Below are positions 34,031 through 51,612 of a DNA stretch of 64,000 bases, piece after piece (positions within the stretch are counted from its first letter, which is position 1; every line of letters begins with the position of its first letter). Both the position numbers and the translations under genes were made by a program. This stretch comes from an uncultured Bacteroidales bacterium (GTDB lineage Bacteria > Bacteroidota > Bacteroidia > Bacteroidales > FEN-979), in contig CAIVAT010000163.1 in NCBI GenBank assembly GCA_903903985.1, positions 9,061 through 73,060 of the forward strand, read 5' to 3'. Below the pieces are notes generated by a model. That model did no database searches. It was not told the DNA's origin and was given only the letters and a program-made list of their open reading frames with translations.

Positions 34031-34062
34031 ATAAGTTTGTGGAAAAATCTAACATCCGGGTT

Positions 34063-35247
34063 ATGCAAAAGATTTTATTTCTTTTTTTTCTGATATCGAT
34101 ATTATTCACTGGTACTTCCTGCCAAATACATATCGGAGACGAAAAAAAACAGGATACTGATTCAATCATTTTGAATAAAGCAAGCAATTTATTGCCTTCA
34201 AATAAACATTCCCCGATCATGAAAAAATCATTTGGACAGGCAGACCATAAAGACGTTTTCCTTTTTTCGCTCACCAACAGCAACGGCATGACCGTGAAGA
34301 TCACTAACTACGGTGCCATCATCACTTCGATCCTTTTCCCCGATAAAACCGGCCATACAGGCGACATTGTACTCGGCTACGACAGTCTTGAACAGTATAT
34401 TGCCAATAGTCCCTATTTTGGCGCCATTGTCGGCCGGTATGCGAACCGGATCGCCAAAGGAAAGTTCACCCTGAATGGAAAACTGTACCAGCTCGCCATC
34501 AACAACGGGAACAACAGCCTGCACGGCGGATTGAAGGGGTTTGACAAGGTTGTATGGGATCCCGGCAAAATTACAGATACCCTGACACCAAAACTTGAAC
34601 TGAACTACTTGAGCAAAGATGGAGAAGAAGGCTTTCCCGGAAACCTGAAAGTAAAAGTAACATACTCCCTGAATGATTACAATGAGCTGATCACCCTGAT
34701 TGAAGCGGAAACGGACCAGGCTACCCCGGTAAATTTGTGCAACCATACCTATTTCAACCTGAGTAAAGCCGATACCAGCATTCTGGGGCACATCCTTACA
34801 CTCTATGCAGATCAGTATACCCGGGTGAACGATGAATTGATACCTACAGGTGATCTGCCTTTTGTTAGAGGAACCGCCATGGATTTCAACAATTCGCGTG
34901 CAATTGGAGAACAAATTGCGAAAGTGAAGGGTGGATATGATCATAACTATGTCTTAAAGAAGAAAACCGGTGAATTATCGATGGCCGCTCAGCTGTATGA
35001 CCCGCGCACGGGACGCCAACTGGAGATCCTGACCACACAGCCCGGAGTTCAATTTTATTCCGGCAATTTTCTGGATGGCACCATCAGAGGCAAGGGTGGA
35101 AAAGTTTATGGGCAACATTATGGTCTTTGCCTTGAAACCCAACATTTTCCTGATTCTCCCAATCATTCGGCATTTCCAAACACCATCCTGCGACCCGGAG
35201 AGAAGTTCCTGGAAAAGACGGTGTACCGGTTTTCAGTGATTAAATAG
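34063..35247 (+). CDS. galM: aldose 1-epimerase (galactose mutarotase), lipoprotein-type signal
   Basis: The ATG at 34063 gives MQKILFLFFLISILFTGTSC. Motifs: ..YFGAIVGRYANRIAKGKF..NNG.NSLHGG..GFDK and ..NHTYFNL... Confidence 0.85.
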   Translation: MQKILFLFFLISILFTGTSCQIHIGDEKKQDTDSIILNKASNLLPSNKHSPIMKKSFGQADHKDVFLFSLTNSNGMTVKITNYGAIITSILFPDKTGHTGDIVLGYDSLEQYIANSPYFGAIVGRYANRIAKGKFTLNGKLYQLAINNGNNSLHGGLKGFDKVVWDPGKITDTLTPKLELNYLSKDGEEGFPGNLKVKVTYSLNDYNELITLIEAETDQATPVNLCNHTYFNLSKADTSILGHILTLYADQYTRVNDELIPTGDLPFVRGTAMDFNNSRAIGEQIAKVKGGYDHNYVLKKKTGELSMAAQLYDPRTGRQLEILTTQPGVQFYSGNFLDGTIRGKGGKVYGQHYGLCLETQHFPDSPNHSAFPNTILRPGEKFLEKTVYRFSVIK

Positions 35248-35311
35248 GTCTGTGGCAAACCGTGACACGTGATGAGTGACAAGGGATTTATTTATTATTC
35301 AAAAAAAGAAG

Positions 35312-36049
35312 ATGAAGTGTATCCTAATCGATGACGAAAAGCATTGTATCAACACATTGACCAATCTCCTGGAACGAAATTTCCCGGAGGTGGAAATTCT
35401 TGCAACCTGCCTCGATTCAACACAGGCATTCGCTTTGATTCAGCAGCATCATCCCGATGTTGTTTTCCTTGATATTGAAATGCCGCTGTTGAACGGATTT
35501 GACCTGCTTTCAAAATTCGAACAACTGTTTTTTGAGGTGATCTTTACTACAGCTTATGACACATATGCTATTAAAGCAATTAAATACAGTGCCCTGGATT
35601 ACCTCCTGAAACCAATCGGGAAAGAAGACCTTGCCATTGCTATTGAAAAGTTAAAAAACAAACAGAATTTAATTAGCAAAACCCAGATTCAGATGGCTAC
35701 CGCGGTGCATAACAAGCTCCTGCCAGAGACAATTGCATTGCCTACCACAGACGGATTGACATTTTCTTCGGTGAATGATATCGTATATTGCACAGCAGAT
35801 GGCAGTTATACCCGTATGTTTCTGCTTGATAAAAGTGAACTCCTGCTTTCAAAAACGTTGGGCGACCTCGACGAATTACTCAGTGAATACAGCTTTTTCC
35901 GTATCCATCATTCTACCCTGATCAATCTGAAACAGGTAAAAAAATATATTCGTGGCGAAGGCGGTGAGGTGATCATGAGCAATGGCGCAACCCTGCAGGT
36001 AGCCCGTACACGAAAAACCGATTTTTTAAAGGTTTTCAAGCGATTCTGA
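35312..36049 (+). CDS. LytTR-family two-component response regulator
   Basis: The ATG at 35312 gives MKCILIDDEKHC. The receiver domain has the phosphoacceptor context DVVFLDIEMP. The C-terminal LytTR domain reads ..FFRIHHSTLINLKQVKKY... Confidence 0.9.
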   Translation: MKCILIDDEKHCINTLTNLLERNFPEVEILATCLDSTQAFALIQQHHPDVVFLDIEMPLLNGFDLLSKFEQLFFEVIFTTAYDTYAIKAIKYSALDYLLKPIGKEDLAIAIEKLKNKQNLISKTQIQMATAVHNKLLPETIALPTTDGLTFSSVNDIVYCTADGSYTRMFLLDKSELLLSKTLGDLDELLSEYSFFRIHHSTLINLKQVKKYIRGEGGEVIMSNGATLQVARTRKTDFLKVFKRF

Positions 36050-36207
36050 AAGAAAGTCTCCCCCAACTGCCGGCCAAATACTACCGGTTACCAATTAATT
36101 CATACCAACTGCCAACTACCGCTTTACTTCCCTATACCTGCCTCCTATTTTTGTATTTCTGAAAATCCTTGAGCAGCAATCTTCCCCTTGCAAGGAGCAG
36201 AAATGAA

Positions 36208-36228
36208 TCGCAAATCGAAAATTGACTT
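36208..36228 (+). repeat. 7-nt tandem repeat array just upstream of a start codon
   Basis: tcgcaaa tcgaaaa ttgactt, ending 6 nt before the ATG at 36235. It shares the 13-mer aaatcgaaaattg with the array at 15558-15581. Confidence 0.85.
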
Positions 36229-36234
36229 TCGGGT

Positions 36235-38406
36235 ATGAAAAAAATTCTTTTTCTTTCAATCCTCCTGCTCATGGCAGGGCTCTATGCTAATTCGCAGTGG
36301 ACCTGGCAAAACCCGTTTCCGCAAGGAAACCATCTCAATGCATGTTGTTTTACGGATGTCAATACAGGATATGTCGTTGGCAGTGCCGGTACCATCCTTA
36401 AAACCATCGACGGAGGCTCAACCTGGACCAGGCAATTGAGCGGAACTCCCTATACTTTGACATCCGTATATTTTACCGATGCCAGCACGGGCTATGCAGT
36501 TGGTGGATATTTATACAGCATGTACGCCGACCGGGGAGTCATTTTAAAAACGACCAACGGAGGCAGCACATGGTCCGTTTTACCAGGCGGAGCAATCTAT
36601 AATTTAAGATCTGTTTGCTTTACCGATGCAAATACTGGCTTTGCGGCTGGTGATTATTTCCCTGCCGGGGAACTGATGAGATTCGGAGTCATTATTAAAA
36701 CCATTGATGGAGGCTCGACCTGGAATGTTGTTTCAGAATTGGTTGGTGGTTCATTCGCCTCCCTTTCATTTACAGAAGCCAGTACCGGGATTGCTTTGGG
36801 AATGTCGGGAGCTATTTGTAAAACCACCGACGGAGGTTCTACCTGGACCACTTTGCCCAGCGCCACAACATCTGATTTGTATTCAGCCGCCTTTTTTACT
36901 TCAATGACAGGCATTGCAGTTGGTGACAATGGAACCATCATTAAAACCACCGATGGAGGCGCAACATGGAACCATTTAGAGGGCAGGACATTCAGCAGGT
37001 TAATTTCTGTATCCTTTACCGATGACAACACTGGCTATATCATGGGCAGCAATGGAATCATCATTAAAACCATCGATGGAGGCACAACCTGGAGCACTTT
37101 GTCGAATGGTACGTCTTATTCATTGAACTCAGTCTGTCAGGCTGATGCAGATACATGGTACGCAGTGGGTGCTTACGGAACTACCCTGAAAATGACCGGA
37201 AGCAGTTCCTCCTGGCATCCCCTGTCGGGCAGTTTTACCACTGCCGGGTTAAATTCAGTTTTTTTCGTAGATGCCAATACGGGTTATGCAGCCGGTAATC
37301 GCGGAACCATGCTTAAAACCATTGACGGTGGATCAACCTGGGCAACACAGGCAGCCGGTACATCGTATGATATTACTTCCGTTTGCTTTACCAGTAAAGA
37401 TACAGGGTATGCTGTATGCGATTACTATGGAAAAATGTTAAAAACCACGGATGGAGGGGCAACCTGGATTACTTTGCCCAATGTGACGAATTATTGGTTG
37501 AAATCGGTCTGTTTTACCAATGCGGGCATCGGATTTGCGGTGGGTACCCATTATAATCTCGATCATTATGAGTCAGTCATCCTGAAAACCGAAGATGCCG
37601 GAACAACCTGGGCTATCTCACATTATTGGGGAGCTCAGTTTACATCCGTTTATTTTTTCGATCAACATACCGGCTTTGTGTCGGGATACGAAGGAATGAT
37701 CATGAAAACAACCGATGGCGGGACAACCTGGGCCACCATGTCCACCGGTGATATACATGCAGCTTTGAATTCAATATACTTCACCGATGCAAATACCGGG
37801 TACGCCGCCGGAGGACATAACTGGGGTGGTGGAATCATCATGAAAACCACTGATGGTGGAACAACCTGGCTAAATATTGCCAACGGAACCTCCGAAGTTT
37901 TAAAATCAGTTTATTTCACCGGTCCAGGCACCGGTTTTGCGGTGGGAGATAACGGCACCATCATCCGGACGATCAACGGAGGGACAACCTGGGATACTTT
38001 GTCGGTCAAAACAAATAATTCACTGACTTCCGTTTTCTTTGCCGATTCCAAAACAGGGTACATTGTTGGCAATGGCGGTACTATTCTGAAAACCACAAAT
38101 GGGGGTTACGGACTCGGGATAAATGAAAATCAGCAAACAATCGGTGTAAAAAACGATCTGAAGGTTTATCCCAACCCTGCCACGGATAAGATAACAATCG
38201 CACCTTCCGGAACAGGAAGTCTTTTAACGGGCAGCCTCTCAATTTATGGGATGACCGGTCAGAAACTGATCTGGCAAATGGTACAGGCCTCGGTTGTGGA
38301 GATGGATGTAAGCTCGCTTCCGGTGGGAATATACATCATCAGACTTGTAAATGCCGATGATACCGAAATCGGAAAATTTATTAAAACCAGAAGCGACGAG
38401 AAGTGA
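36235..38406 (+). CDS. 14-blade Asp-box (BNR/Ycf48-like) beta-propeller protein with T9SS C-terminal sorting domain
   Basis: 723 aa with a signal peptide. I counted 14 repeats of the form G.I.KT.DGG.TW (2 degenerate). The C-terminal LKVYPNPATDKITI...GIYIIRL.. is a Por_Secre_tail-type CTD. Confidence 0.8.
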   Translation: MKKILFLSILLLMAGLYANSQWTWQNPFPQGNHLNACCFTDVNTGYVVGSAGTILKTIDGGSTWTRQLSGTPYTLTSVYFTDASTGYAVGGYLYSMYADRGVILKTTNGGSTWSVLPGGAIYNLRSVCFTDANTGFAAGDYFPAGELMRFGVIIKTIDGGSTWNVVSELVGGSFASLSFTEASTGIALGMSGAICKTTDGGSTWTTLPSATTSDLYSAAFFTSMTGIAVGDNGTIIKTTDGGATWNHLEGRTFSRLISVSFTDDNTGYIMGSNGIIIKTIDGGTTWSTLSNGTSYSLNSVCQADADTWYAVGAYGTTLKMTGSSSSWHPLSGSFTTAGLNSVFFVDANTGYAAGNRGTMLKTIDGGSTWATQAAGTSYDITSVCFTSKDTGYAVCDYYGKMLKTTDGGATWITLPNVTNYWLKSVCFTNAGIGFAVGTHYNLDHYESVILKTEDAGTTWAISHYWGAQFTSVYFFDQHTGFVSGYEGMIMKTTDGGTTWATMSTGDIHAALNSIYFTDANTGYAAGGHNWGGGIIMKTTDGGTTWLNIANGTSEVLKSVYFTGPGTGFAVGDNGTIIRTINGGTTWDTLSVKTNNSLTSVFFADSKTGYIVGNGGTILKTTNGGYGLGINENQQTIGVKNDLKVYPNPATDKITIAPSGTGSLLTGSLSIYGMTGQKLIWQMVQASVVEMDVSSLPVGIYIIRLVNADDTEIGKFIKTRSDEK

Positions 38407-38424
38407 CAATTGACAATTGACCAA
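38404..38424 (+). repeat. 7-nt tandem repeat forming the whole cargo-kinase spacer
   Basis: tgacaat tgacaat tgaccaa. The first tga is the stop of the propeller gene, and the last unit runs into the ATG at 38424. Confidence 0.85.
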
Positions 38425-40466
38425 TGAAGCCAGCACCATTGTATTTTTGGATAATGCTCATCCTGGCCTGCTGGATCAGTAAAAGTACATTTGCCCAGAA
38501 AGCCATGAGGGACAGTCTTCAGTTGAAAATTTCAAAAATGGCCAGTGATACAGCCAAAGTTAAATTGCTGATAGATTTTAATTATTTTTTCGATGATGCT
38601 GAAAGGGATAGTTGCTTAAAGGTTGCCTACGAACTCTCAAAGAAGATAGGTTTCCGCTACGGACTGATATGGGGCCGGTTTTATGAAGGACGATTGCTTC
38701 TCCATGCAGGCAGGTATGATGAAGCTATTGAAAAATACAAGAGTTGTATTGATGGATTGGACTCATTAGGCTATATACAAAATCTTACTTATCGGCCACT
38801 ATCAGAAATTCGTTGGTTATTTAACCTCGCGGGCAAGCAAGAACAGAAATTTCAATATTATAATGAGAAACTTGCCTTTTACAAAAAGCATGGCCCGATT
38901 GAAAATACGGCGAACTGTTACCATGGAATTGCGGGATATTATGCCTATCTGGGTGACCACGATAAGTCGATCGGGTATTATTTCCGTGCGCGGGATGTCT
39001 ATAAATCTTTTAGCCCTGAAGCCTATGCAAATGAAACTCAAGTCATCGGGTCTGAATACCTGTTATGGGGTAACCTGAACAAAGCTGAAGTTTATCTCCG
39101 GTCGGCGCTGAAAGAATTGAAGCAGTTAAAACTGAATCTGTTTTTTTGTTATCACCAATTGGGTGATCTCTGTTTTCAAAGAAAGGATTACAAAAGAGCC
39201 TTGCAATATTACTTTGAGGGGAAACGGCACATTGCCATCCCTGAGTTACAATTGATAAATTTGGTAAACTGCGCGGCAGTTCACCTCAGGATGAATTCCC
39301 TGGACAGTGCATGGCTTTACCTCGACAGCGCGGAGAAGTTAAGGCAAAGAGACAGGTTGGGGCTTGTTTTTTCGAACGGAAATGCCGAAATTGATTATAA
39401 CCTCTACCTGTATTACGCTGCAACCAGGAATAAAAGCATGGCACTTCAACATCTTGAAGCCGCATTGAAACTAGCAAAGTCATCCAGGTCAATGCCTCTT
39501 GTTTTAAAATATACCAATGAACTTCATACCTGCATGCTTAAAACAGGAGATTCGCTTCAAGCCCTTCGTTACCTGGTTCAATACAAAAACCTCCAGGATT
39601 CTTTGAACGCCAAGAGTACCTATGCCCGGATAGCGACATTTGAAATTGAGCAACTGCAGCAACAAAAAGAGAATGAAATTCAACAATTGCTCACCCAGGA
39701 AGCCACACAACGGAACTATTACCTGGTTGGCGGAGTTTTCCTTTTCCTGGCGGTCATGGCCTTGCTCAGCCGGCTTCGATATAAACGTAAAAGAGACAAG
39801 GAGCAGCTCACCACCGATTTTAAAAGGCAACTGGCCCAGGCGGAAACAAAGGCGTTGCGGGCGCAGATGAACCCGCATTTCATCTTCAATTCCCTGAGCT
39901 CCATCAACAGTTTTGTCATGGACCAAAAGCATGAAATAGCCTCCGAATATCTTATTAAATTCTCGAAACTTATCCGGCTGATACTGGATAATTCACGCAG
40001 CGAAACGATTTCCATCGAAAAGGAGCTGGAAACATTGAAGTTATATGTTTTGCTGGAGAGTGCCCGGTTTGAAAACAGGTTCAAATGCATTTATCAAATA
40101 GCAGATGATGTCAATTCAAGTACCATCATGATACCGCCAATGCTTTTGCAGCCATTCGTGGAAAATGCCATCTGGCATGGGCTGATGCAAAAGGAAACCG
40201 AAGGGACCATTACGGTGGAAATAAAAAAAGAGAATGAAGAATTCCTGAACATTTCCGTCACCGATGACGGGATTGGCAGGGAGAAAGCTGCGTCGTTAAA
40301 GAGCAAATCGGCCACTCACAAATCGCATGGCTTGAAAGTTACATCCCAGCGAATCGACATGATGAACAAACTGAATTCAACCGGCGCACAGGTGGATGTG
40401 CTTGACCTCAAAGATGAAAGTGGCCATCCAACGGGGACCAGGGTAGTGCTGATCATTCCGATATGA
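38424..40466 (+). CDS. sensor histidine kinase 1: signal/TM - TPR-like ectodomain - TM - LytS/YehU-type His_kinase + HATPase
   Basis: 680 aa. N-terminal hydrophobic segment, ~400 aa of helical TPR-like repeats, TM helix YYLVGGVFLFLAVMALLSRL, then LRAQMNPHFIFNSLSSI (His_kinase) and ..VENAIWHG..DDGIG.. (ATPase). Confidence 0.85.
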   Translation: MKPAPLYFWIMLILACWISKSTFAQKAMRDSLQLKISKMASDTAKVKLLIDFNYFFDDAERDSCLKVAYELSKKIGFRYGLIWGRFYEGRLLLHAGRYDEAIEKYKSCIDGLDSLGYIQNLTYRPLSEIRWLFNLAGKQEQKFQYYNEKLAFYKKHGPIENTANCYHGIAGYYAYLGDHDKSIGYYFRARDVYKSFSPEAYANETQVIGSEYLLWGNLNKAEVYLRSALKELKQLKLNLFFCYHQLGDLCFQRKDYKRALQYYFEGKRHIAIPELQLINLVNCAAVHLRMNSLDSAWLYLDSAEKLRQRDRLGLVFSNGNAEIDYNLYLYYAATRNKSMALQHLEAALKLAKSSRSMPLVLKYTNELHTCMLKTGDSLQALRYLVQYKNLQDSLNAKSTYARIATFEIEQLQQQKENEIQQLLTQEATQRNYYLVGGVFLFLAVMALLSRLRYKRKRDKEQLTTDFKRQLAQAETKALRAQMNPHFIFNSLSSINSFVMDQKHEIASEYLIKFSKLIRLILDNSRSETISIEKELETLKLYVLLESARFENRFKCIYQIADDVNSSTIMIPPMLLQPFVENAIWHGLMQKETEGTITVEIKKENEEFLNISVTDDGIGREKAASLKSKSATHKSHGLKVTSQRIDMMNKLNSTGAQVDVLDLKDESGHPTGTRVVLIIPI

Positions 40467-40498
40467 AATGTAACCGAAAAATTCAATTGTTTAACCCG

Positions 40499-40529
40499 AC
40501 CCTTGGAAGGTCCATGACCCTCCAAGGGT
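40499..40529 (+). terminator. hairpin downstream of kinase 1 (weak terminator candidate)
   Basis: 9-bp stem: acccttgga (40499-40507) pairs with tccaagggt (40521-40529), with a 13-nt loop, followed by tttaatt. The T tract is short, so confidence is modest. Confidence 0.4.
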
Positions 40530-40649
40530 TTAATTGATGACATTGACAACTTTTTAGAAGGATATATTTCCTTTTCAAAGACGCAATTTTTCCATTAAAA
40601 AGTGTTTAAATAGGGTTTAGGAATAGAAAAAAATAAAAATCAGGCCACC

Positions 40650-40657
40650 TACCTTTG
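40650..40657 (+). promoter_or_regulatory. candidate -7 promoter box for the S8 protease gene
   Basis: TACCTTTG matches TAnnTTTG and lies 24 nt upstream of the ATG at 40681. Confidence 0.45.
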
Positions 40658-40680
40658 ACATTGTAAACTCTGAAATTAAT

Positions 40681-43600
40681 ATGAAAAAACATTTACACAT
40701 TTTGATCATCGTTTTAGCTTTTTCGGGCTTTGGGATAACGGTTAACAGCCAGACCCGGGTGCCGATGGACAAACCCGGTCCGGAAGCAGTTCGCAGCTCC
40801 ATGGCACCTTCCTTATTGCCTTCTCAATGTGTACAGGGGATGATCACTATTAAACTCAAACAAGGTGCCGGGGAATTCGGCAAACAATCCGGGTCTGTCA
40901 ATTTCGGAATCAAATCCCTTGATGAAAAGGTTGCTTACTACCAGGTTAACCAACTGGGAAAGCGATTCCACTACAACCCTGCAAAAATGCGTGCAGGATT
41001 GCCCGACCTGTCGCGCATCTATAAAATATCCTTTCCTGAGAACTTCCCTCCGGGAGACGTTGTGAAAGCATTTTCAGCGGACCCTGAAGTGGAATATGCC
41101 GAAGTGATTCCGGTGGATCATGTATGCGATGTGCCTGACGACTCCTTGTTCAGCCATTTGCAGCATCTTCCTCAAATCATGGCCCCGCAGGCATGGGCAA
41201 TTCACAAAGGTGAAAACGGGACCGATCCGGTCATCATTGCCATCAACGATACCGGTGTGGACTGGGAACACGTTGATTTGCTCAGCAACATATGGCAAAA
41301 CCTGGGAGAAGATGCCGATAATGACGGACATACCATAGAGTTTATCGCGGGTCAGTGGGTACTTGATCCCGGCGATCTGAATGGTATTGACGATGACCTG
41401 AACGATCGTCCCGATGACCTGGTAGGCTGGAATTTTATAAACAGCAGCGGGAACCCGAATCCAATCGCTGGAAACCCCATGGGATCCCATGGTACTCATT
41501 GTGCCGGGATTGCAGATGCCAGAACCAATAACGGGAAAGGAATATCCAGCATCAGCTGGAATGTGAAGATAATGCCGATATGCGTTGATGCAAACAACAC
41601 ATTGCCGTATGCCTATGATGGCATCATATATGCAGCCGAAAACGGGGCGGATATCATTTCAAACAGCTGGGGAGGAGGTGGTTATTCCATTGCCGACCAG
41701 GAGGCAATATCCTATGCAGCCGGCCTGGGCAGCATCGTGGTAGCGGCAGCAGGCAATGACAACAATTCCCCGCTGTTTTATCCGGCTGATTATCTGAATG
41801 TTATATCCGTTGCTTCTGTCAGTGTGGACGACACCAAGGCAGTTTATTCAAGTTATAACCATGCGGTGGATATCGCGGCGCCCGGTGGTGGCAATGAAGG
41901 CGGAATTCTAAGCACCATTCCCGGGGATGCCTATGGCCTTATGTCGGGAACCTCCATGGCTTCACCGCTGATAGCAGGCTGTTTCGGGTTGTTAAAATCA
42001 TTTCATCCCGGTTGGTCGAATGAACAGCTTATCACGCAGTTGCTCGGATCAGCCGACAACATCGATTCCCTCAATCCCGGTTATGTTACCATGCTGGGGT
42101 CTGGCAGGGTGAATGCCTATCGCATGCTAACAGATCAGAATGTAACAATGCCGTACCTCAAAATCGATTTACTTTCTGTCAGCCCTGCAGATGCAAACGG
42201 AAATGGCATCAATGAAGCAGGCGAAAATGTGATTTTAAATTTCAATCTTCGCAATTGCATGCAAACGACAGGTGCCGGCGATGTAAATTTCACCATAACG
42301 ACAAACGACCCTGATATCACCATCCTCGATGGAACAGGTACCGTAAACATCCCGCCTGATTCTTACTTCAGCATCCAGAATCAGTTGCAGATTCTGGTTG
42401 GAGCCAGCGCAACCAGCCACTTTGCAAAAATGACCCTTCATTTCCAATCATCGTTGGAAATCATAGCAGGCAAGGATATCAATTTCGAGGTGCTGGTTGC
42501 CCCGTCAGGGATACTGGTTTTTGAAGGAGAGGCAGGCGGACAGGACTACAGCGGCACATTCATCGCCGGTTTTCTTGACCATCTCGGGTACGACTATACC
42601 TATACCAATTCCTTTCCTGAACTGAAAGGGTTTGAAACCGTTTTCCTGTCTTTTGGCAATATCGGCGAGTACAGTGATAAAGGCACACCATTAACACAAA
42701 GCAATTCAGCCACATTACAGCATTATCTCGAAAGCGGCGGAAATGTGTACATGGAGATGGGTGGTATGTTCTATTATATTTACAATTATGCGAACAGGGA
42801 TACCCTCAAGCGATTATTTGGCCTGAATACGATTGTTGTGACAAACCTTGAAAATCAGATCGATACGCTGAAGGGGGAAATGAGTTCTCCGATGAAAGGG
42901 ATGGTTTTTGCGGGATCGGATCAGAAATACAACTGGCATATTGACCGGATGACCCCGAAAACCGGGGCGCTCATTGCATTTAAAGAACGCAATTACGGCA
43001 CAGGCAATGTTGCCATCATGTACGACGGAACAGCTGCCGAGGGGCAAAAATCTTTTTACATGGGATACACACTTGCCGCTCTCCGCGACAGGGATACGCT
43101 CACTTCGCGATACAATGTCATGCTGAAAACGATGGATTTTTTTGGTTACACAATGCCCCAGGGATATATACTGGCGAATTTTATCACCGATAAAAAAACA
43201 GGCGGTGCACCCTTGCAGGTTCACTTTTCTGATATCTCGCTCAGTGATTCCGGATACAAGGTAACTTCCTGGCAATGGGATTTCAATAATGATGGTACCA
43301 TCGACTCTTATGAGCAGAATCCGTCCTGGACTTATAATACCGGAGGTAATTACACGGTAAGGCTGATTGCCTCCAACAGGTTTAAATCTGACACTTTAAT
43401 CAAGGCAGGACTGATCACCGTCAACAGCGGTTATATGGTCTATGAAGGTGTTTCCGGCGGACATGATTACAGCGGCTCTTTTATCAGGGATCATCTCATC
43501 GAAGGATCTTACCCGGTCAAATACCTTACCAAATTCCCGGAAAACCTGGAAGGGTTTTCAGCGGTCTTCCTTTCCTACGGAAACGTATTGTCTGGATGGA

Positions 43601-44334
43601 CACAACTCGATGACCAAATGGCAAGCATGATCACTGCCTATCTTGAAAATGGCGGTTACGTATACCTCGAAGGAGACGTTGCAATGAGTTACGACCAGGG
43701 CGACAACACGCACTTGCACCAATTGTTTGGCCTTTCATCCGCAGTCCTGGGCACCAATAACCCGGTCGATAGCCTGGCCGGACGACCGGAAGCATTAACA
43801 AATGGAATGGTTTTCACTGGTAATAGTCAGAGTTCCAATTCCTATATTGATATGTTTACACCCTCTGTAGATGGCATCACTGCCTTTACTGAAAGCAATT
43901 ACGGCACCGTAGCTGTTCAACAACAAATTCCCGGTAACCGGCGAACATTTTGCTTTTCCTATGCTTTGTCCCGCTTAAATGATGGAGAGCTACCAAACAT
44001 AAGGGAAGTTCTTTTGAACCGGATCATCAATTTTTTCGACATGTATACTGCTGTGCCGGATGGCATTCGATCCGCTTCTTTGCGTTGCAAAGTTTATCCA
44101 AACCCGGTGAATGAATGTGTCACTTTTCAATATTATCTCCCCGAGGAAAGCCACGTAACCCTTGAGATTTTTAATTCCACGGGCCGGAAAATCCTGCAAC
44201 CAGGCATTGGCAATCAAACCAAAGGTGAACATTTTGTTAAATGGGATGCAGCTGGCTTGTCATCAGGATTTTATTATTATACACTCAGGAGCAGGCAACA
44301 GGTGAATACTGGTAAAATAATTATTATCAAGTAG
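40681..44334 (+). CDS. S8 subtilisin-family serine protease with duplicated accessory module, PKD domain and T9SS C-terminal sorting domain
   Basis: 1217 aa with a signal peptide. The catalytic triad contexts are AINDTGVDWEH (Asp), HGTHCAGI (His) and GTSMASP (Ser). The PKD-like segment is WQWDFNNDGTIDS..NYTVRLIASN. The CTD is KVYPNPVNECVTFQY...GFYYYTL. Confidence 0.85.
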   Translation: MKKHLHILIIVLAFSGFGITVNSQTRVPMDKPGPEAVRSSMAPSLLPSQCVQGMITIKLKQGAGEFGKQSGSVNFGIKSLDEKVAYYQVNQLGKRFHYNPAKMRAGLPDLSRIYKISFPENFPPGDVVKAFSADPEVEYAEVIPVDHVCDVPDDSLFSHLQHLPQIMAPQAWAIHKGENGTDPVIIAINDTGVDWEHVDLLSNIWQNLGEDADNDGHTIEFIAGQWVLDPGDLNGIDDDLNDRPDDLVGWNFINSSGNPNPIAGNPMGSHGTHCAGIADARTNNGKGISSISWNVKIMPICVDANNTLPYAYDGIIYAAENGADIISNSWGGGGYSIADQEAISYAAGLGSIVVAAAGNDNNSPLFYPADYLNVISVASVSVDDTKAVYSSYNHAVDIAAPGGGNEGGILSTIPGDAYGLMSGTSMASPLIAGCFGLLKSFHPGWSNEQLITQLLGSADNIDSLNPGYVTMLGSGRVNAYRMLTDQNVTMPYLKIDLLSVSPADANGNGINEAGENVILNFNLRNCMQTTGAGDVNFTITTNDPDITILDGTGTVNIPPDSYFSIQNQLQILVGASATSHFAKMTLHFQSSLEIIAGKDINFEVLVAPSGILVFEGEAGGQDYSGTFIAGFLDHLGYDYTYTNSFPELKGFETVFLSFGNIGEYSDKGTPLTQSNSATLQHYLESGGNVYMEMGGMFYYIYNYANRDTLKRLFGLNTIVVTNLENQIDTLKGEMSSPMKGMVFAGSDQKYNWHIDRMTPKTGALIAFKERNYGTGNVAIMYDGTAAEGQKSFYMGYTLAALRDRDTLTSRYNVMLKTMDFFGYTMPQGYILANFITDKKTGGAPLQVHFSDISLSDSGYKVTSWQWDFNNDGTIDSYEQNPSWTYNTGGNYTVRLIASNRFKSDTLIKAGLITVNSGYMVYEGVSGGHDYSGSFIRDHLIEGSYPVKYLTKFPENLEGFSAVFLSYGNVLSGWTQLDDQMASMITAYLENGGYVYLEGDVAMSYDQGDNTHLHQLFGLSSAVLGTNNPVDSLAGRPEALTNGMVFTGNSQSSNSYIDMFTPSVDGITAFTESNYGTVAVQQQIPGNRRTFCFSYALSRLNDGELPNIREVLLNRIINFFDMYTAVPDGIRSASLRCKVYPNPVNECVTFQYYLPEESHVTLEIFNSTGRKILQPGIGNQTKGEHFVKWDAAGLSSGFYYYTLRSRQQVNTGKIIIIK

Positions 44335-44345
44335 ATGGCAAGACC

Positions 44346-46406
44346 ATGAAATCTGCCATCGGCCATTTTGGAATAGCCTTACTTCTGATTATTTTTTTCA
44401 GTTGTACCGGTTATGCCATGCCAACCGTTGCCGATTCACTTCGGTCGCAGATTCCCAAAGAAAAAAATGATACAATTAAAATAAAACTCCTGATCCGCCT
44501 TGCCTTGCTCATAAATGTCGGACAGGATGAAATGACGGCTTGTTTAAAGCAGGTCTACGAACTGTCGAAAAAACGACATTACAGGGAGGGGTTGATCTAT
44601 GGCCGCTATTATCAAGGGCTTATACTTTGGGACAACAATAAACTGGACAGCGCTTTCGATAAAATAAAAAGTGCGATCGATGGGCTGGATTCTTTGCAGG
44701 TCGTTCAACTGATGAACAATTCTCCGCTTCACATGATGCGGCTTTTGTTTTATGAATTAGGCAAACAAACAGAGCGGTTTCAGTATTATTCAGCGAAGGC
44801 TGCTTTCTACAGAAGATACGGCCCGCTGGAAAACACAGCGTCATGCTATCATAGCATTGCCGGGTACTATTACTCACTGGGAGATTATGACAAGGCCATC
44901 GAATATTACCTTCGTGCCAGGTCTGCTTCCAAATCGGTGGATGCATACGGGTATGCATCCGAGAGCGCGATCGTCGGCAATATGTACCTGTTGTGGGGCA
45001 ATTTACAAAAAGCCCGGCAATACCTGGAATCAGGGCTGAAAGATTTTCTTATTATTGATAATCCTTCCATGATCACCTACATTTACAATAATCTTGGTGA
45101 TCTCTCATTGAAACAGAAAGAATACAAGCGTGCGCTACAGTATTATTATGAGGAGAAAAAATATTGGCCGGATATTCAAAGTCAGTTTATTGCCCTGAAT
45201 ATGGTCAGCATTGCCGCAGTTCACCTGGAGATGAAGAACACCGACAGTGCCCGCTTCTATCTTTCGTCGGTTGAAAAAATGGAAAAAAAAGGTAAATTCA
45301 ACATTGTTTCCAACCACGGTCCCCTGGAGCTAGACTATTGCAACTATCTCTATTTTAGGGCCACGGGTCGTCAGGGGCAGGCGCTCAGATCGCTCGAAGT
45401 GGCGTTAAAAAAGGCAAAGGAGGACAAGAATCAACCCCTAGTTTTAAAATACACCAACGAGCTGCATACCTACCTGCTTGGCAGAGGTGATTCATTGCAA
45501 TCGCTTCGATACCTGGTGCAATACCAGGCAATCCAGGATTCGCTGAGTAATATAAATTCACAAGGCAGGATTGCAGCGTATGAGATTGAACAACGCGAAC
45601 AAATCCAGGAAAATAAAATTGAGCAATTGCAGGCGCAGAAAGCCATACAACGCAAATATTACCTTGCGGCCGGTTTATTTTTACTGCTGATCGGCCTGGC
45701 CGTATTCAGCCGGCTCCGCTATAAACGAAAACGTGACAAAGAGCAACTCGTCACAGAATTCAACAAACAACTTGCCCAGGCGGAAACCAAAGCGCTGCGG
45801 GCGCAGATGAACCCGCATTTCATCTTTAATTGCCTGAACTCTATCAACAGTTTCGTTATTGACCAAAAACATGAAATAGCCTCCGAATACCTGATCAAGT
45901 TTTCAAAACTGATACGCCTTATCCTGGATAATTCACGCAGTGAAACCATATCCATGACAAAGGAACTGGAAACATTAAAATTATACGTCTTGCTTGAGAG
46001 TGCGAGATTTGACAATAAATTCAGGTGTCTGTACCACATCGGTGAAGATGTGGATACCAATTCAATCATGATCCCACCGATGATCCTGCAGCCGTTTGTT
46101 GAAAATGCCATCTGGCACGGACTGATGCAAAAAGAAACGGATGGTACGATCATCGTCGATATTAAAAAAAAGAACGAGGGTTACCTCAATATTTCAGTTT
46201 CGGATGACGGGATCGGCAGGGACAAGGCGTCGACATTAAAAAGCAAGTCGGCCACCCATAAATCGCATGGACTGAAAGTTACCTCCCAGCGGATTGAGAT
46301 GATGAACAAACTGAATACCACCGGTGCACAGGTGCAGGTTATCGACCTCAAAGATGAACACGGCCTGTCAATGGGAACCAGGGTGGATCTGGTTATTCCG
46401 ATATAA
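44346..46406 (+). CDS. sensor histidine kinase 2 (full-length paralog of kinase 1)
   Basis: 686 aa with the same architecture as kinase 1. TM helix YYLAAGLFLLLIGLAVFSRL. Long identical peptide stretches with kinase 1 include QLAQAETKALRAQMNPHFIFN, EIASEYLIKFSKLIRLILDNSRSETIS and KSKSATHKSHGLKVTSQRI. Confidence 0.85.
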   Translation: MKSAIGHFGIALLLIIFFSCTGYAMPTVADSLRSQIPKEKNDTIKIKLLIRLALLINVGQDEMTACLKQVYELSKKRHYREGLIYGRYYQGLILWDNNKLDSAFDKIKSAIDGLDSLQVVQLMNNSPLHMMRLLFYELGKQTERFQYYSAKAAFYRRYGPLENTASCYHSIAGYYYSLGDYDKAIEYYLRARSASKSVDAYGYASESAIVGNMYLLWGNLQKARQYLESGLKDFLIIDNPSMITYIYNNLGDLSLKQKEYKRALQYYYEEKKYWPDIQSQFIALNMVSIAAVHLEMKNTDSARFYLSSVEKMEKKGKFNIVSNHGPLELDYCNYLYFRATGRQGQALRSLEVALKKAKEDKNQPLVLKYTNELHTYLLGRGDSLQSLRYLVQYQAIQDSLSNINSQGRIAAYEIEQREQIQENKIEQLQAQKAIQRKYYLAAGLFLLLIGLAVFSRLRYKRKRDKEQLVTEFNKQLAQAETKALRAQMNPHFIFNCLNSINSFVIDQKHEIASEYLIKFSKLIRLILDNSRSETISMTKELETLKLYVLLESARFDNKFRCLYHIGEDVDTNSIMIPPMILQPFVENAIWHGLMQKETDGTIIVDIKKKNEGYLNISVSDDGIGRDKASTLKSKSATHKSHGLKVTSQRIEMMNKLNTTGAQVQVIDLKDEHGLSMGTRVDLVIPI

Positions 46407-46666
46407 AGTGCAAAATCCGTGACCCTCCAAGGGTTTAAAATCCAGGTTTTCCCGGAAACATATAACTCAACCGTGCTGAAGGTCATGCAGTTTGTAAACG
46501 ATAGTCAATCCGGGGAGAACATTTTATAAACTGGAACGCCGGAGGATTACCGGCAGGATTTTACGATTATTCCCTCGTCAGCGAAAAAATGGAATCAACA
46601 GGTAAGATAATTGTCATGAAATTACCATAGTCACTTGTCACTCCTGATTTTTCACCCGTCCTAACA

Positions 46667-46700
46667 AAATCGTAAATCGCAAATCGTAAATCGTAAATTA
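46667..46700 (+). repeat. 7-nt tandem repeat array (TCGYAAA x4)
   Basis: tcgtaaa tcgcaaa tcgtaaa tcgtaaa tta.., located inside the 395-nt non-coding spacer. Confidence 0.9.
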
Positions 46701-46741
46701 TTATTTTTTTTAATTAACTTGAAAATTCGAAAGTTTCTCAT

Positions 46742-46749
46742 TAGTTTTG
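46742..46749 (+). promoter_or_regulatory. candidate -7 promoter box
   Basis: TAGTTTTG matches TAnnTTTG and lies 53 nt upstream of the ATG at 46802. Confidence 0.35.
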
Positions 46750-46801
46750 GATCATTCTAAATTAATTGATCATTGATCTCCTGAACCTTAAATCTTATAA
46801 A

Positions 46802-47533
46802 ATGAAAAAGTTAACCTCAATTACCGCTTTTCTTGTCCTGTTTGTATTCATTTCGGGAAAGACACAGGAAATGAACCTGGACCAAATTCTGTCAAAATAT
46901 TATCAAACCACCGGATTGGATTTGGTAAAAGATTGGAAAACCCTTACGATGACAGGAAAAACTTTGGCGCAGGGAATGGAGTTTCCCGTAATCATGTACA
47001 TGAAACGTCCGGGTAAAATAAGGGTTGAAGTGGAGATTCAGGGAAATAAAATGCTCCAGGTTTTCGACGGACAGGCCGGATGGAGCGTTGTTCCGTGGTC
47101 GGGCTCCTCCGACCCGCAGGAAATGAACCCGGATGAGGTGAAGGGAATGAAGGAACAGGCAGATTTTGAGGGATCCCTTTACAACTGGAAAGAGAAAGGA
47201 CATAAAGTTGAACTCATCGGGAAGGATGATATGGAAGGAACACCTGTTTATAAGATCAAAACCAATTTAGCAGATGGAAATATCGAAACATATTATATCG
47301 ATGCGGAGAGTTTTGTTGAACTTAAAGTTTCCTCAGTAAGTAAAATCCAGGGAAATGAAACGGAAGGTGAAGGATACATAAGCAATTATAAAGATGTGAG
47401 TGGTGCGCTGATGCCATTCGCCATTGAGAATAAGGTTAAAGGCCAGACGGTCTCAACCGTGGAGATCATCAAATATGAGGTCAATAAGGACCTGAACGAC
47501 AGTTTGTTTGTGAAACCAGCAAAAAAGAAATAA
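46802..47533 (+). CDS. LolA-like / outer-membrane lipoprotein-sorting-fold protein, function unknown
   Basis: The ATG at 46802 gives the signal peptide MKKLTSITAFLVLFVFISGKTQE. It is ~240 aa and beta-rich, with ..GMEFPVIMYMKRPGKIRVEVEIQGNKMLQVFDGQAGW.., typical of LolA-like proteins annotated as 'lipoprotein-sorting'. Its stop is 1 nt from the next start. Confidence 0.5.
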   Translation: MKKLTSITAFLVLFVFISGKTQEMNLDQILSKYYQTTGLDLVKDWKTLTMTGKTLAQGMEFPVIMYMKRPGKIRVEVEIQGNKMLQVFDGQAGWSVVPWSGSSDPQEMNPDEVKGMKEQADFEGSLYNWKEKGHKVELIGKDDMEGTPVYKIKTNLADGNIETYYIDAESFVELKVSSVSKIQGNETEGEGYISNYKDVSGALMPFAIENKVKGQTVSTVEIIKYEVNKDLNDSLFVKPAKKK

Positions 47534-47534
47534 T

Positions 47535-50500
47535 ATGACCAACCATCCTCAACAAATGCCATGGCAGAAGATCCTTCCTGTCCTGTTATTCGTGTTCATT
47601 CTACTTTCAGGTTCCGGTTTCACGCAGATAACCGTGAAGGTTGATGAGAATACTTTTGGCGACCTCACTGCCCGGCAACTCGGACCCGCCACCATGAGCG
47701 GCCGGATTTCAGCGATTGATGCAGTGGATAAAAATCCTGCACTCGTATACGTGGGAGCGGCATGCGGCGGATTGTGGAAATCAAAAAATTTCGGTACAAC
47801 TTTCAAGCCGGTTTTTGACAAATACAACCAATCGATCGGTTCCATTGCCATCGATCAGGATCATCCTGATACCGTGTGGGTTGGAACCGGTGAAGTATGG
47901 GTGAGAAATTCCACTTCGGTAGGAAACGGGATCTATAAAACGACCAATGGCGGTGAGACCTGGAAAAAGATGGGATTGGACAAATCTGAGCGGATCGCCA
48001 GGATAATCATTCATCCGGGAAATGCTGATCTCCTCTATGTTGCTGTTCTGGGTAACCTTTGGAATTCAAGCCCCGACAGAGGGCTGTATCAATCCTCTGA
48101 TGGCGGCAAAACATGGGAGAAGATACTCTATATCGATGAAAACACCGGTTGTTCCGATGTAGCGATCGACCCGCAAAACCCCGATATTCTCTATGCCGGG
48201 ATGTGGGAATTCCGGCGTACTCCCTGGTCGTTCAGTTCGGGGGGCAAGGGAAGCGGCCTGTTCCGTTCATCTGATGGCGGCAAGACCTGGGCAAAGATCA
48301 CCAAAGACCTTCCGGAAGGAATCCTCGGACGGATAGCGATTTCCGTATCTCCTGTGAAATCAGATATTGTTTATGCCCTGATCGAAGCAAAAAATACGGC
48401 ATTGTTTCGTTCTGCGGATAAAGGACTGACCTGGAACAAGATTTCCGAATCACAGGCTGTCGGTGACCGGCCATTCTACTTTTCGAACCTGGTCGCTGAC
48501 CCCATCGATACAAACATCGTTTATAAACCGGGTTTTTCCCTGTATAAAAGCATGGATGGCGGAAAAACATTTGGTTCAGCAGCGGTTGAAGGAGGAAATT
48601 ATCACAGCGATTGCCATGTGCTCTATATCAGCAGGAAGGATAATAACTTCATATATATGGGAACAGATGGCGGCGCCTATTGCTCAATGGACAAAGGGAA
48701 TACCTGGAGGTTTCTGCGCAATCTGCCGGTTTCACAATTCTATCATGTGAGCGTCGATATGGCTGATCCCTTCAATGTTTATGGTGGATTGCAAGACAAT
48801 GGATCGTGGTACGCACCTTCGTGCGCTGCAGGAGGAATTTCAAATGCCGACTGGAAAAGTGTCGGGTATGGGGACGGATTTTATGTTTATTGTGATAAGC
48901 TGGATTCGACCATTCTTTACTGGCAGTTCCAGGGTGGTCGGATTGCCCGCTATTACAAGAAAACCGGGGAATATAAATCATTGATACCCTTTAAGGATGA
49001 AGGAACCGCAGATCTTCGCTTCAACTGGAATACACCCTTGATTTTCTCCCCGACAGGCAATCATTTTTATACCGGAGCCCAATACCTGTATAAAACATAT
49101 AACCGCGGAGATACCTGGAAACGGATTTCACCCGATCTGACAACCAATGATACGAAAAAACAAAAGCAGGAATCTTCCGGCGGTTTGACATCAGATAATT
49201 CATCGGCCGAAAATCACTGTACCATTTATACTATAAATGAATCGCCGCTGGACAGCCTGATCATCTGGGCGGGTACCGATGATGGGAACCTGCAGGTGAC
49301 AAACGATGGCGGGAAAACCTGGGCCAATGTAACCGGAAATATTCCCGGACTTCCTCAGGCCACCTGGTGCTCTTATGTTGAACCCGGAAGATATGATAAA
49401 AACAGGATTTACGTTACCTTCGACGGACATCGCATGGGCGACAAAACCCCGTATGTTTATACAAGCGGAGACCTTGGAAAAACATGGAGAGCATTGGCAG
49501 ATACCTCGGTCAAATCCTACTGTCATGTCATCAGGGAAGATCTGGTAAACCCTGGCCTCCTTTTTCTTGGTACCGAGGCGGGTCTGTATATTTCCGTCAA
49601 CGGGGGCAATACCTGGGCACATTTCAGCGGCAATATGCCGAATGTTCCTGTGATGGATATGCTGGTTCACCCACGTGACCAGTCCCTGGTCATCGCCACA
49701 CACGGGCGCGGTATCATGATCATTGATGACCTTACTCCTCTGCGGAAGTTATCGGATGAAGTCCTGAATTCGGACCTGACATTTCTGAAGTCAAAAGATT
49801 ATATTATCCGGGAAGCTTTCCCCGGACAAGGTTGGAACGGTGATGACGAGTACTCAGGGCAGGTACCGAGAGAAGCCGCACAGATCGTTTACTTCCAGAA
49901 AAAAAGACATGTTTTCGGGGAGATGTACATGGAGGTTTTTGACAAGGATGATCAAATGATCCAAAAACTTCCTGCCGGCACCCGGAAAGGGATCAATGTC
50001 ATTAACTGGACGATACGGATGAAGCCGCCGAGGGTTCCGGTTTCTCCACAGATTGAAGGATCATCCATGATCGGGCCCAATTATCCTGCCGGTGAATATA
50101 CCGTGAAACTTCATAAGGGAACCCAGGTTTATGATACAAAGATCAGGTTGCTTTTTGATCCTGCCTCCCGGTACTCGATAACAGACCAGGAAACCAGGCA
50201 GAATGCCCTCATGCAGGCATACCACACACTGGAAACATTGGCCTTGCTTGACCGACGGGCAACATCTGCCAGGGATGCAGCCAGGGAACGATCCAATGGC
50301 GTTTCGAAATCACTTACCCGGAAACTTCATGATACGGAAGTCCTCATGGATAGTCTGCATCTAAAAATGGTCGTTGTTAAAGAAGGGAAAGTTGTAGGCG
50401 AAGAACGATTGAGGGAGAAGATCGGATTTCTGTATGGTTCCGTCATGAACTACAAAGGAAGGCCTACTGATTCTCAACTGAATGGCCTTGCATCACTTGT

Positions 50501-50639: not shown

Positions 50640-50651
50640 ATGTATTTTATT

Positions 50652-51548: not shown

Positions 51549-51556
51549 AAGAACAC

Positions 51557-51580: not shown

Positions 51581-51612
51581 TAAGGAATAAATTACCCGGA
51601 AAGGTAAATTTT

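Follow-up and report, generated by a model that had tools for sequence, protein, structure and literature searches.

Why does a gene for a T9SS-secreted protein stand directly before a gene for a sensor kinase, and this twice in succession behind a single regulator gene? The question is raised by a locus of an uncultured Bacteroidales bacterium, in which a single LytTR regulator gene precedes two units, both made up of a T9SS cargo gene and a sensor-kinase gene. All five genes were found on the + strand at the positions given by the ORF list, in agreement with the preliminary description of this DNA, and their domains were borne out by the Pfam and NCBIfam profile searches. In the window (the whole 64-kb stretch of DNA that was analyzed), the LytTR regulator is the only one of its kind, the only TPR-LytS family kinases are the two of this locus (kinases 1 and 2), and the only genes matching the CTD model are the two cargos, each located directly before a family kinase. 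The answer that we favor, with a probability of roughly 0.6, is that the locus would encode a LytS/LytTR two-component system of two kinases and one regulator, which has T9SS proteins as its output and an auto-amplified kinase 1. Since both the pairing and a conserved promoter of the regulator type are met again in related genomes, expression of the kinases is probably turned on jointly with that of the secreted proteins under the control of the system.

Cargo 1 (36235–38406, + strand) is a double BNR/Asp-box beta-propeller (Ycf48-like) with a signal peptide and a type A sorting domain, as found with Pfam (PSII_BNR, 177 bits in 9 stretches; Por_Secre_tail, 43 bits) and NCBIfam (TIGR04183, 46.6 bits; cut-off 23). 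Its sorting domain occupies residues 644–717 of 723 and belongs to class I, characterized by ...GKFIK and a short tail. Fourteen blades had been ascribed to this propeller: 12 strict T.DGG.TW Asp-boxes were counted, and their spacing shows two gaps into which two degenerate blades would fit, which makes 14 a plausible number rather than a direct count. Cargo 2 (40681–44334, + strand) is a subtilisin-type S8 protease with PKD and a type A sorting domain (Pfam: Peptidase_S8, 168.5 bits, PKD and Por_Secre_tail, 39.6 bits; NCBIfam: TIGR04183, 40.7 bits). The sorting domain corresponds to residues 1138–1215 of 1217 and is of class II (...GKIIIIK). Both sorting domains are thus placed at the very C-terminus and score above the TIGR04183 and PF18962 cut-offs, and the N-terminal Sec signal peptides, as read from the sequence, are MKKILFLSILLLMAGLYANSQ and MKKHLHILIIVLAFSGFGITVNSQ. 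An orthologue of cargo 2 (1216–1217 aa) occurs in two other genomes, followed 10–11 nt downstream by a signaling-type gene.

The two kinases (kinase 1, 38424–40466; kinase 2, 44346–46406; both + strand) are paralogues of the same architecture, in which a signal peptide, TPRs, a stalk helix and one TM helix precede the His_kinase (PF06580) and a probable HATPase_c domain, according to Pfam and, for kinase 1, a structural model. The PF06580 scores are 78.4 and 80.0 bits (cut-off 25.2), and N483, P484, H485 and F486 are invariant in the alignment of 29 family kinases. HATPase_c scored 26.5 bits in kinase 1, at the cut-off of 26.4, and 24.1 bits in kinase 2, a little under it; its residues E580, N581, D614, G616 and G618 are invariant in the family alignment. 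The JGI gene call places the start of kinase 1 30 nt later than the preliminary description did; the earlier start is preferred because the family alignment supports it. Each N-terminus is signal-peptide-like, with a family consensus ending in xFAQ, and the single TM helix (430–453 in kinase 1, 436–459 in kinase 2) is followed by the flank RLRYKRKRDKE. The signal peptide, the single TM helix and the positive, KR-rich cytoplasmic flank all point to a location of the TPR region outside the cytoplasm, as had been proposed. The AlphaFold2 model of kinase 1 (pLDDT 81) has 18 helices at residues 28–374, which form a TPR superhelix of ~350 aa, and a continuous helix (377–479) that runs through the membrane into the kinase core. 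In a Foldseek search, this model matched the TPRs of LGN/Pins and Rap/NprR and the kinase domain of GanS. On the best reading, the TPR ectodomain is periplasmic, with a fold that resembles the peptide-binding TPRs of LGN and Rap/NprR.

The regulator (35312–36049, + strand; 245 aa) is composed of REC and a LytTR DNA-binding domain (Pfam: Response_reg, 73.4 bits; LytTR, 57.1 bits), and related loci, at least 10 of them, have a 245-aa orthologue as the neighbor of family kinases. Its best NCBIfam matches were BtsR (126.6 bits; cut-off 246) and LytR (89.4 bits; cut-off 375); these scores are far below the equivalog cut-offs, and an assignment as an orthologue of the named BtsR or LytR system was rejected. 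The two kinases are 60% identical overall, 49% in the ectodomain and 91% in the His_kinase region. The near-identity of the latter region, taken with the gene counts in the window, suggests that both kinases plausibly feed the one regulator, a convergence already put forward in the preliminary description.

We then have to ask how these genes are transcribed. The spacers between the cargo stop and the kinase start, re-read from the sequence, are 17 nt (cargo 1/kinase 1) and 11 nt (S8/kinase 2). The cargo 1/kinase 1 junction is unstructured and carries neither a hairpin nor a −7 box; no TAnnTTTG was found within 200 nt upstream of either kinase gene or of the regulator gene, and −7 boxes are located ahead of both cargo genes. 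A hairpin (core 40498–40530, + strand; −25.6 kcal/mol, z = −4.64) lies 3′ of kinase 1 and is followed by UUUAAUUG. This hairpin had been noticed before and is real in that none of 200 shuffles folded as well; it is likely the terminator of the first unit. The Bacteroidota-type −7 box reported for the 214-nt spacer after kinase 1 is also present (TACCTTTG, 40650–40657, + strand, ahead of the S8 gene); upstream of it, exact-match, repeat-pair and promoter-model scans detected no tandem repeat. Scans for sigma-70 promoters and simple terminators gave results near the shuffle expectation and were uninformative, the terminator scan missing the kinase 1 hairpin. The gene order, the tiny junctions, the hairpin and the −7 boxes together support the division into two cargo-kinase units behind a single regulator gene.

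In the shuffle-tested folding, a strong hairpin was found 3′ of kinase 1 only and not of kinase 2. A 19-nt segment 3′ of kinase 2 (46420–46438, + strand; TGACCCTCCAAGGGTTTAA) is identical to the right arm of the kinase 1 hairpin; the left arm is missing there and the fold is weak (z = −1.9). This repeat shows that the duplication that gave rise to kinases 1 and 2 took in the 3′ flank. The duplicated flank would suit a reading in which cargo and kinase have no functional link and their adjacency is a by-product of tandem duplication and shuffling in a variable island. The segment between the aldose epimerase gene and PPK2/GalK does differ among related genomes, and the BNR-kinase pairs may descend from one ancestor. 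We nevertheless regard this reading as very improbable on account of two features described below, namely a dedicated promoter and the persistence of the adjacency, which across lineages has already been partly seen for both.

The promoter element ahead of cargo genes consists of two CTACCGGTTAYCAA direct repeats 21 bp apart, followed after 30 bp by TAnnTTTG. In the window, this regulator-type promoter is located ahead of the propeller gene (36063–36154, + strand; alignment and nhmmer model): DR1 (CTACCGGTTACCAA, 36081–36094) is the sole exact match in the window, DR2 (36102–36115) follows with a 21-bp period as a degenerate copy that departs from the consensus at 5 positions, and the −7 box (TATTTTTG, 36146–36153) lies 30 bp after DR2. 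The sequence aligns with eight homologous cargo promoters, the architecture is kept in all nine, and the invariant columns include CCGGTTA of DR1 and the −7 box. A repeat-pair scan returned 15 sites, all of them in family loci and on the + (kinase) strand, with a period of exactly 21 bp and, in 13 of the 15, a TAnnTTTG spacing of 29–31 bp. With the nhmmer promoter model, 0.36 Mb of family loci yielded 20 matches (E ≤ 1.2e-5), against zero in the 1.25 Mb of Bacteroidota loci that served as control; the element at 36063–36154 (E = 3.8e-19) is its only match in the window. The existence of such a highly conserved promoter, dedicated to the cargo genes, is hard to reconcile with mere shuffling.

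The gene immediately preceding the promoter is that of the regulator in the window and in loci L116, L102/L118 and L117. Behind the promoter, we found cargo plus kinase; a beta-lactamase-CTD gene, a 131-aa protein and a kinase; a 135-aa protein and a kinase; a kinase alone; a 70-aa ORF, the regulator and a kinase; and, once, a peroxiredoxin gene. Since a conserved tandem-repeat promoter of the LytTR-bound kind precedes the cargo, cargo and kinase look like the regulator's target operon. Related genomes also have the promoter directly before the kinase gene with no cargo between, and it looks, from these arrangements, as if cargo genes had come to be inserted after a regulator-dependent promoter, ahead of the kinase gene. 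A common promoter for the S8 units was considered and rejected: the repeat element is absent in the window and in L083, the sequences upstream of the three S8 genes fail to align with one another, and the S8 gene of L084 is the only one of the three with the repeat promoter.

Whether the cargo-kinase adjacency is conserved across genomes was answered by comparing relatives with a control set of distant LytS-type kinases from a genome-collection scan, which yielded one close relative. Among ~32 related kinases with a readable upstream neighbor, 14 are directly behind a T9SS sorting-domain gene and 10 behind a LytTR regulator; among ~75 more distant Bacteroidota LytS-type kinases, the cargo-kinase adjacency was not found at all. 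The difference (14/~32 versus 0/~75) corresponds to a Fisher p of 4e-9, in which the counts are not independent events because the sampled loci are related and mostly located on short metagenome contigs. The adjacency is thus conserved in relatives and absent from distant LytS-type kinases, and its survival at 42–62% ectodomain identity and across at least 3 cargo body types also speaks against an arrangement without function. Most often, the partner is a BNR propeller or a Receptor-L/LRR protein. Several relatives have a gap of 45–160 nt between cargo and kinase, with a strong hairpin inside it in three (z = −4 to −6); in two other relatives with such a gap, TATCTTTG occurs just before the kinase gene. 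These signals suggest that the kinases there may be transcribed separately.

Our reading of a regulated operon leaves one fact unexplained: as a pure output model, it does not account for most sampled new cargo genes bringing their own diverged kinase. This leads to the sensing readings suggested in the preliminary description. One is that the cargo co-expressed with a kinase is bound by the TPR ectodomain of that kinase, the likeliest target being the C-terminal sorting domain in periplasmic transit; the system would then report secretion load or jams so that expression is adjusted, and this is compatible with the operon model. Such sensing of an own cargo is plausible because the sorting domain of PorA is the ligand of the kinase PorY in the periplasm of Porphyromonas gingivalis, where its binding activates PorXY-SigP (PMC12152298). 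Cargo and kinase are also usually paired: all sampled class I sorting domains with a readable downstream gene, which span BNR and Receptor-L/LRR bodies, are followed by a kinase (12, including two near-identical loci), and the seven sorting-domain genes in the sampled loci that lack a kinase link are of other classes. The likeness of the ectodomain to peptide-binding TPRs agrees with this idea, as does L117, in which a family kinase directly follows the T9SS parts PorP/SprF and a PorE-like protein. However, the ectodomain tree is star-like and does not correlate with cargo type or sorting-domain class, which counts against strict one-to-one recognition, and the two sorting domains of the window are only 28% identical to each other. 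Moreover, about one-third of the family kinases stand directly behind the regulator with no cargo gene; one of these, the kinase of L090, is the closest relative of kinase 2 in the sampled loci (75% ectodomain identity). Mini-cargo genes hidden in the long regulator-kinase gaps were also sought, and a single weak sorting-domain remnant was found, in L098 (E = 1.5e-5; the search space was tiny). It therefore seems doubtful to us that the TPR kinases bind the cargos in this way, and equally doubtful that each is dedicated to sensing, in the periplasm, the sorting domain of the T9SS cargo encoded with it, in a hard-wired per-cargo circuit that monitors secretion and feeds one LytTR regulator.

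Another is that small peptides or other products are set free by the secreted proteins outside the cell, diffuse into the periplasm and are detected there by the kinases, giving substrate-induced expression, for instance with S8-derived peptides sensed by kinase 2. TPR folds like those of Rap/NprR and LGN bind short extended peptides, the S8 catalytic triad of cargo 2 is intact (D190, H270, S425), and other kinase-linked genes encode a beta-lactamase-family hydrolase and an S9 peptidase. The commonest cargos, by contrast, match no catalytic domain family, and we consider this explanation improbable.

For the regulated cargo-kinase operon, the following course can be proposed. Kinases 1 and 2 would be single-pass membrane proteins whose periplasmic TPR superhelices most likely bind a peptide or protein ligand, and both would phosphorylate the same LytTR regulator, as their near-identical His_kinase regions suggest. 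A dimer of the phosphorylated regulator would bind the two repeats at 36081–36115, 30 bp upstream of the −7 box; we infer this from the conserved geometry and from the mode of LytTR regulators such as AgrA. Binding would activate one transcript of the BNR-propeller cargo and kinase 1, ending at the hairpin, whereby cargo 1 would be an output and kinase 1 would be placed in positive feedback. A second unit, with its own promoter, would consist of the S8 protease gene and kinase 2; as this promoter has no repeats, kinase 2 may supply a basal or independent input.

Apart from PorXY-SigP, in one oral pathogen, we found little on how Bacteroidota choose the T9SS proteins to make. The present locus and its relatives define a family-specific module of a LytTR regulator, a recognizable promoter element, T9SS cargo genes and TPR sensor kinases, which can be recognized from sequence alone and offers a candidate binding site and a predicted regulon. 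Should cargo sorting domains in fact be read by the kinases, secretion signals would commonly double as signaling ligands, and per-cargo sensing would generalize what is so far one case, PorA-PorY, to a family in environmental Bacteroidales that is modular and can expand. If the kinases do not read them, a clear multi-kinase network growing by added cargo-kinase cassettes is still seen.

The statement that no characterized system has this wiring holds in part: a search of the literature found no TPR-LytS/LytTR system linked to T9SS cargo, but PorA-PorY coupling (PMC12152298) and the TPR sensor of FimS (PMC11053733) are known. The locus shares with PorA-PorY-PorX-SigP the functional coupling of a T9SS cargo protein to a sensor kinase, which is here predicted from the genes. 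The kinase class differs, as PorY is not known to have a TPR ectodomain or a PF06580 core. The PorXY-SigP outputs are T9SS machinery genes reached via a sigma factor, whereas the outputs proposed here are T9SS-secreted proteins; moreover, porA, porY and porX are far apart as judged by their PGN locus tags (PMC12152298), whereas cargo and kinase in the window are adjacent and probably on one transcript. FimS of P. gingivalis, like the present kinases, is a Bacteroidota histidine kinase with a periplasmic TPR sensor, of about eight motifs and with a ligand that is possibly a polypeptide (PMC11053733). Its model was the best NCBIfam match of both kinases (31.7 and 23.9 bits, covering the TPR/TM part only); these scores are far under the cut-off of 600 and the core is PF06580 rather than HisKA, so that membership in the FimS family was rejected. 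The core of FimS is of the HisKA type, and FimR is not known to be a LytTR regulator. FimS/FimR controls fimbriae, with no T9SS cargo linkage described, whereas the window kinases stand behind T9SS cargo genes.

LytS/LytR, BtsS/BtsR and YpdA/YpdB resemble the window system in combining a kinase with a PF06580 core, followed in the window kinases by a probable HATPase_c domain, with a REC and LytTR regulator. The differences are that LytS has a multi-pass membrane sensor domain in place of a periplasmic TPR superhelix behind a signal peptide; that the regulator gene is here upstream of the kinases, while ~70 of the 75 distant Bacteroidota relatives have the kinase and then the regulator; and that the window system has two or more kinases per regulator, with kinase genes behind T9SS cargo genes. 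AgrA-type promoters likewise have a pair of direct repeats with a 21-bp step between them, placed just before the core promoter (PMC4227749), but the repeat sequence is another one, the core is the Bacteroidota TAnnTTTG, and binding of the regulator is predicted by analogy. Finally, parallels for the wiring are networks in which several sensors with diverged inputs and conserved transmitter parts converge on one regulator. Examples are LuxN, LuxQ and CqsS acting on LuxO in Vibrio, and KinA–E acting on Spo0F. The window system, for which convergence is predicted from sequence identity and gene counts, differs from these in that each extra kinase comes packaged with a gene for a secreted protein.

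The five open reading frames proposed in the preliminary description were all found on the + strand at their claimed coordinates, and their domains were upheld by Pfam and NCBIfam: a regulator with REC and LytTR domains (35312-36049); cargo 1 (36235-38406), a BNR/Ycf48-like propeller whose C-terminal domain (CTD) is a type A T9SS sorting domain; K1 (38424-40466), a kinase with TPR, His_kinase (PF06580) and HATPase_c regions; cargo 2 (40681-44334), an S8 protease with PKD, a type A sorting domain at its end and an intact catalytic triad; and K2 (44346-46406), a second TPR kinase. The spacers between cargo and kinase are indeed 17 nt (cargo 1-K1) and 11 nt (cargo 2-K2), the reported hairpin 3′ of K1 is strong (-25.6 kcal/mol, z = -4.6), and the reported TAnnTTTG box ahead of cargo 2 lies at 40650. 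Cargo 1 is also preceded by such a box, at 36146, and none occurs in the 200 nt upstream of K1 or of K2. The 14 blades attributed to the propeller were recovered in part: 12 strict Asp-boxes were counted, and the spacing has room for two degenerate ones. ACAATTG is present twice in the cargo 1-K1 spacer (38407-38423). At 44334-44360, the start-codon region of K2 pairs with its first codons in a small hairpin (-9.9 kcal/mol, z = -2.3), which could affect K2 translation. The window sequence is matched by a 263-kb contig, Ga0212088_10000024, of the JGI metagenome 3300022555.

The adjacency of cargo and kinase was examined in related loci (sampled as L001-L118). The kinase search gave at least 2181 matches at E ≤ 1e-10; the best 120 of these are 51-100% identical to K1, several of them on one contig, and are mostly from metagenomes or MAGs labelled Bacteroidota/Bacteroidales. 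The family sample consisted of 33 metagenome loci obtained by an ectodomain-only alignment and five annotated contigs with DNA obtained by exact-protein look-ups, and the control sample of 79 distant Bacteroidota LytS-type kinase loci. When near-identical loci were removed, about 32 family kinases with a readable upstream neighbour were left. For 14 of them, this neighbour is a same-strand gene ending in a T9SS sorting domain, the bodies being BNR propellers (nine, including that of the window), Receptor-L/LRR proteins (two), an S8 protease (one) and cut genes (two); for 10, it is a 245-aa LytTR regulator. The other upstream contexts include a protein that has Fib_succ_major and, internally, a sorting-like domain, small hypothetical proteins, and, for the kinase of locus L117, the T9SS components PorP/SprF with a PorE-like protein. 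Among the controls, a same-strand sorting-domain gene lies directly upstream of none of about 75 kinases, about 70 of which show the usual kinase-then-regulator order, and the frequency of sorting-domain genes in the control loci is 1.8% (Fisher p = 3.9e-9 for family versus control adjacency, related loci not being independent events). Thus, the expected adjacency in related genomes was borne out, and the cargo-kinase arrangement is real, conserved and statistically supported.

The order of regulator, cargo and kinase is found again in L102/L118, where the cargo is a BNR protein; in L116, the regulator also comes first, but a different protein occupies the cargo position. In L098 (9640-10000), the 355-nt gap between regulator and kinase holds a broken sorting-domain start (IYPDPTSGNFTLNLE, then a stop codon), which may be what is left of a former cargo gene. 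The L117 locus (1-19760) carries first a giant type B cargo, then the PorE-like protein (TPR/PD40/OmpA), PorP/SprF and the family kinase; behind the kinase come, in this order, a LytTR regulator, the BNR and S8 cargos and, starting 10 nt past the S8 stop codon, a second LytTR regulator.

When the regions upstream of the cargo genes were aligned, a common and precise architecture appeared: an upstream-most CCAACT...CAAA element, a pair of CTACCGGTTAYCAA direct repeats with a period of exactly 21 bp (DR1 and DR2), a GCTTTxCTTTC stretch, and TAnnTTTG 30 bp past the second repeat. A scan for the repeat pair found 15 sites, all on the kinase strand and all within family loci. An nhmmer model built on the 92-bp element gave 20 matches (E ≤ 1.2e-5) across 0.36 Mb of family loci, versus no match below E = 0.58 across 1.25 Mb of control loci. 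Its sole match in the window lies between the regulator gene and cargo 1 (36063-36154, E = 3.8e-19); by both searches, the S8-K2 unit has no such element. What follows the promoter varies: cargo and kinase; a beta-lactamase-CTD gene, a 131-aa protein and kinase; a 135-aa protein and kinase; kinase alone (L087, L103); a 70-aa ORF, regulator and kinase (L095); an S8 gene (L084); and, once, a peroxiredoxin gene (L086). Promoters bound by the LytTR regulator AgrA have a pair of direct repeats, set one step from each other, immediately 5′ of the core promoter (PMC4227749), and the family promoters share this layout. Tandem heptamers CAGTCAA/CAGTCAG occur ahead of the S8 gene of L084 (2900-2980).

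The DNA itself shows how genes and signals are arranged and that adjacency and promoter are conserved; the best-supported model built on this has three predicted steps. Both kinases would phosphorylate the single regulator; the phosphorylated regulator would bind the repeats and switch on a joint cargo 1-K1 transcript; and the S8-K2 unit would be expressed from a separate promoter. Relatives call for caution here: among them, three longer cargo-kinase gaps contain strong hairpins and two others carry TATCTTTG just before the kinase, which suggests separate or attenuated kinase expression elsewhere in the family. In the region ahead of the regulator gene itself (34039-35311), an aldose 1-epimerase gene ends 64 nt before the regulator start, and no TAnnTTTG occurs within 200 nt upstream; the regulator may be transcribed by read-through from the epimerase gene or served by an unrecognised promoter.

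K1 and K2 are 60% identical overall, but unevenly so: identity is highest in the His_kinase region (91%), lower in the ATPase domain (76%) and lowest in the ectodomain (49%), as expected of paralogues that share a partner and differ in their inputs. Each has a signal-peptide-like N-terminus (family consensus MKxxxxxxWLxxLLIxLFSGxxFAQ) and a single TM helix followed by RLRYKRKRDKE, and in an AlphaFold2 model (pLDDT 81) residues 28-374 fold into a TPR superhelix of 18 helices, from which a continuous helix at 377-479 crosses the membrane into the kinase core. These features put the TPR region in the periplasm, as the preliminary description had it. The top structural matches of the model are the peptide-binding TPR proteins LGN/Pins, Rap and NprR, and the GanS kinase domain was also matched. 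The ectodomain family is small at 50% clustering (43 representatives at E ≤ 1e-30 among 1.84 billion proteins). Homologues at 31-39% identity occur as fusions with adenylate/guanylate cyclase domains, in tandem three-gene arrays, and with HisKA-type kinases (L109:2236-8543, L111:2-5958, L113:1389-5752); the ectodomain is therefore a portable sensor module.

As for the putative ligand, sensing of a T9SS cargo by a kinase has a precedent in P. gingivalis: PorA, through its sorting domain, binds to PorY in the periplasm, and PorXY-SigP is activated (PMC12152298). The kinase-linked cargos carry two recognisable sorting-domain classes, of which class I (...GKF[IV]KE) is found on BNR and Receptor-L bodies alike, and sorting-domain genes of the same loci without a kinase link fall in other classes. 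However, the ectodomain tree tracks neither sorting-domain class nor cargo type, and a cargo gene is lacking for K2's closest relative among the sampled loci and for a third of the family kinases; on balance, we consider cargo sensing by these kinases unlikely.

Compared with related contigs, the kinase/cargo array (35248-52779) occupies a variable slot. Its downstream end is marked by the PPK2 and galactokinase genes that flank arrays in related genomes, the candidate counterparts in the window, matched by size, being reverse-strand ORFs of 298 and 388 aa. Elsewhere, the slot holds a Reg_prop-type kinase, a C10 peptidase, AAA_14/DUF4143 genes, or an S8 gene with the gene of a 742-aa protein, lacking annotation, 11 nt behind it. 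In the window, a two-gene unit 3′ of K2 (46802-50639) encodes a LolA-like protein and, 1 nt apart, a 1034-aa Sortilin/BNR protein (F510_1955 glycosylhydrolase-like); it has a TAGTTTTG box and leader repeats of its own, and no T9SS sorting domain by Pfam and NCBIfam. The AATCGTAAATCG motif, often in tandem, occurs 11 times in the window versus 0.42 expected (at 15559, 33960(-), 36206, 46668-46693, 51561-51579(-) and others) and is also present in the 5′ leaders of the cargo genes of L097, L104, L003, L001 and L116. Most copies lie 13-100 nt 5′ of start codons on the strand of the gene. The motif looks like a genome-wide leader element.

Taken singly, the parts of this system belong to known types: the two-component system is of the PF06580/LytTR kind, the cargos are T9SS type A, and the sensor is a periplasmic TPR region. 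FimS (PMC11053733) has such a sensor too, but K1 and K2 are not its orthologues (31.7 bits against an NCBIfam cut-off of 600), and the regulator is an equivalog of neither BtsR nor LytR (NCBIfam). In the literature searched, we found no description of a system that combines a leading regulator gene and a dedicated tandem-repeat promoter with several TPR kinases, each of them encoded behind a T9SS cargo gene.
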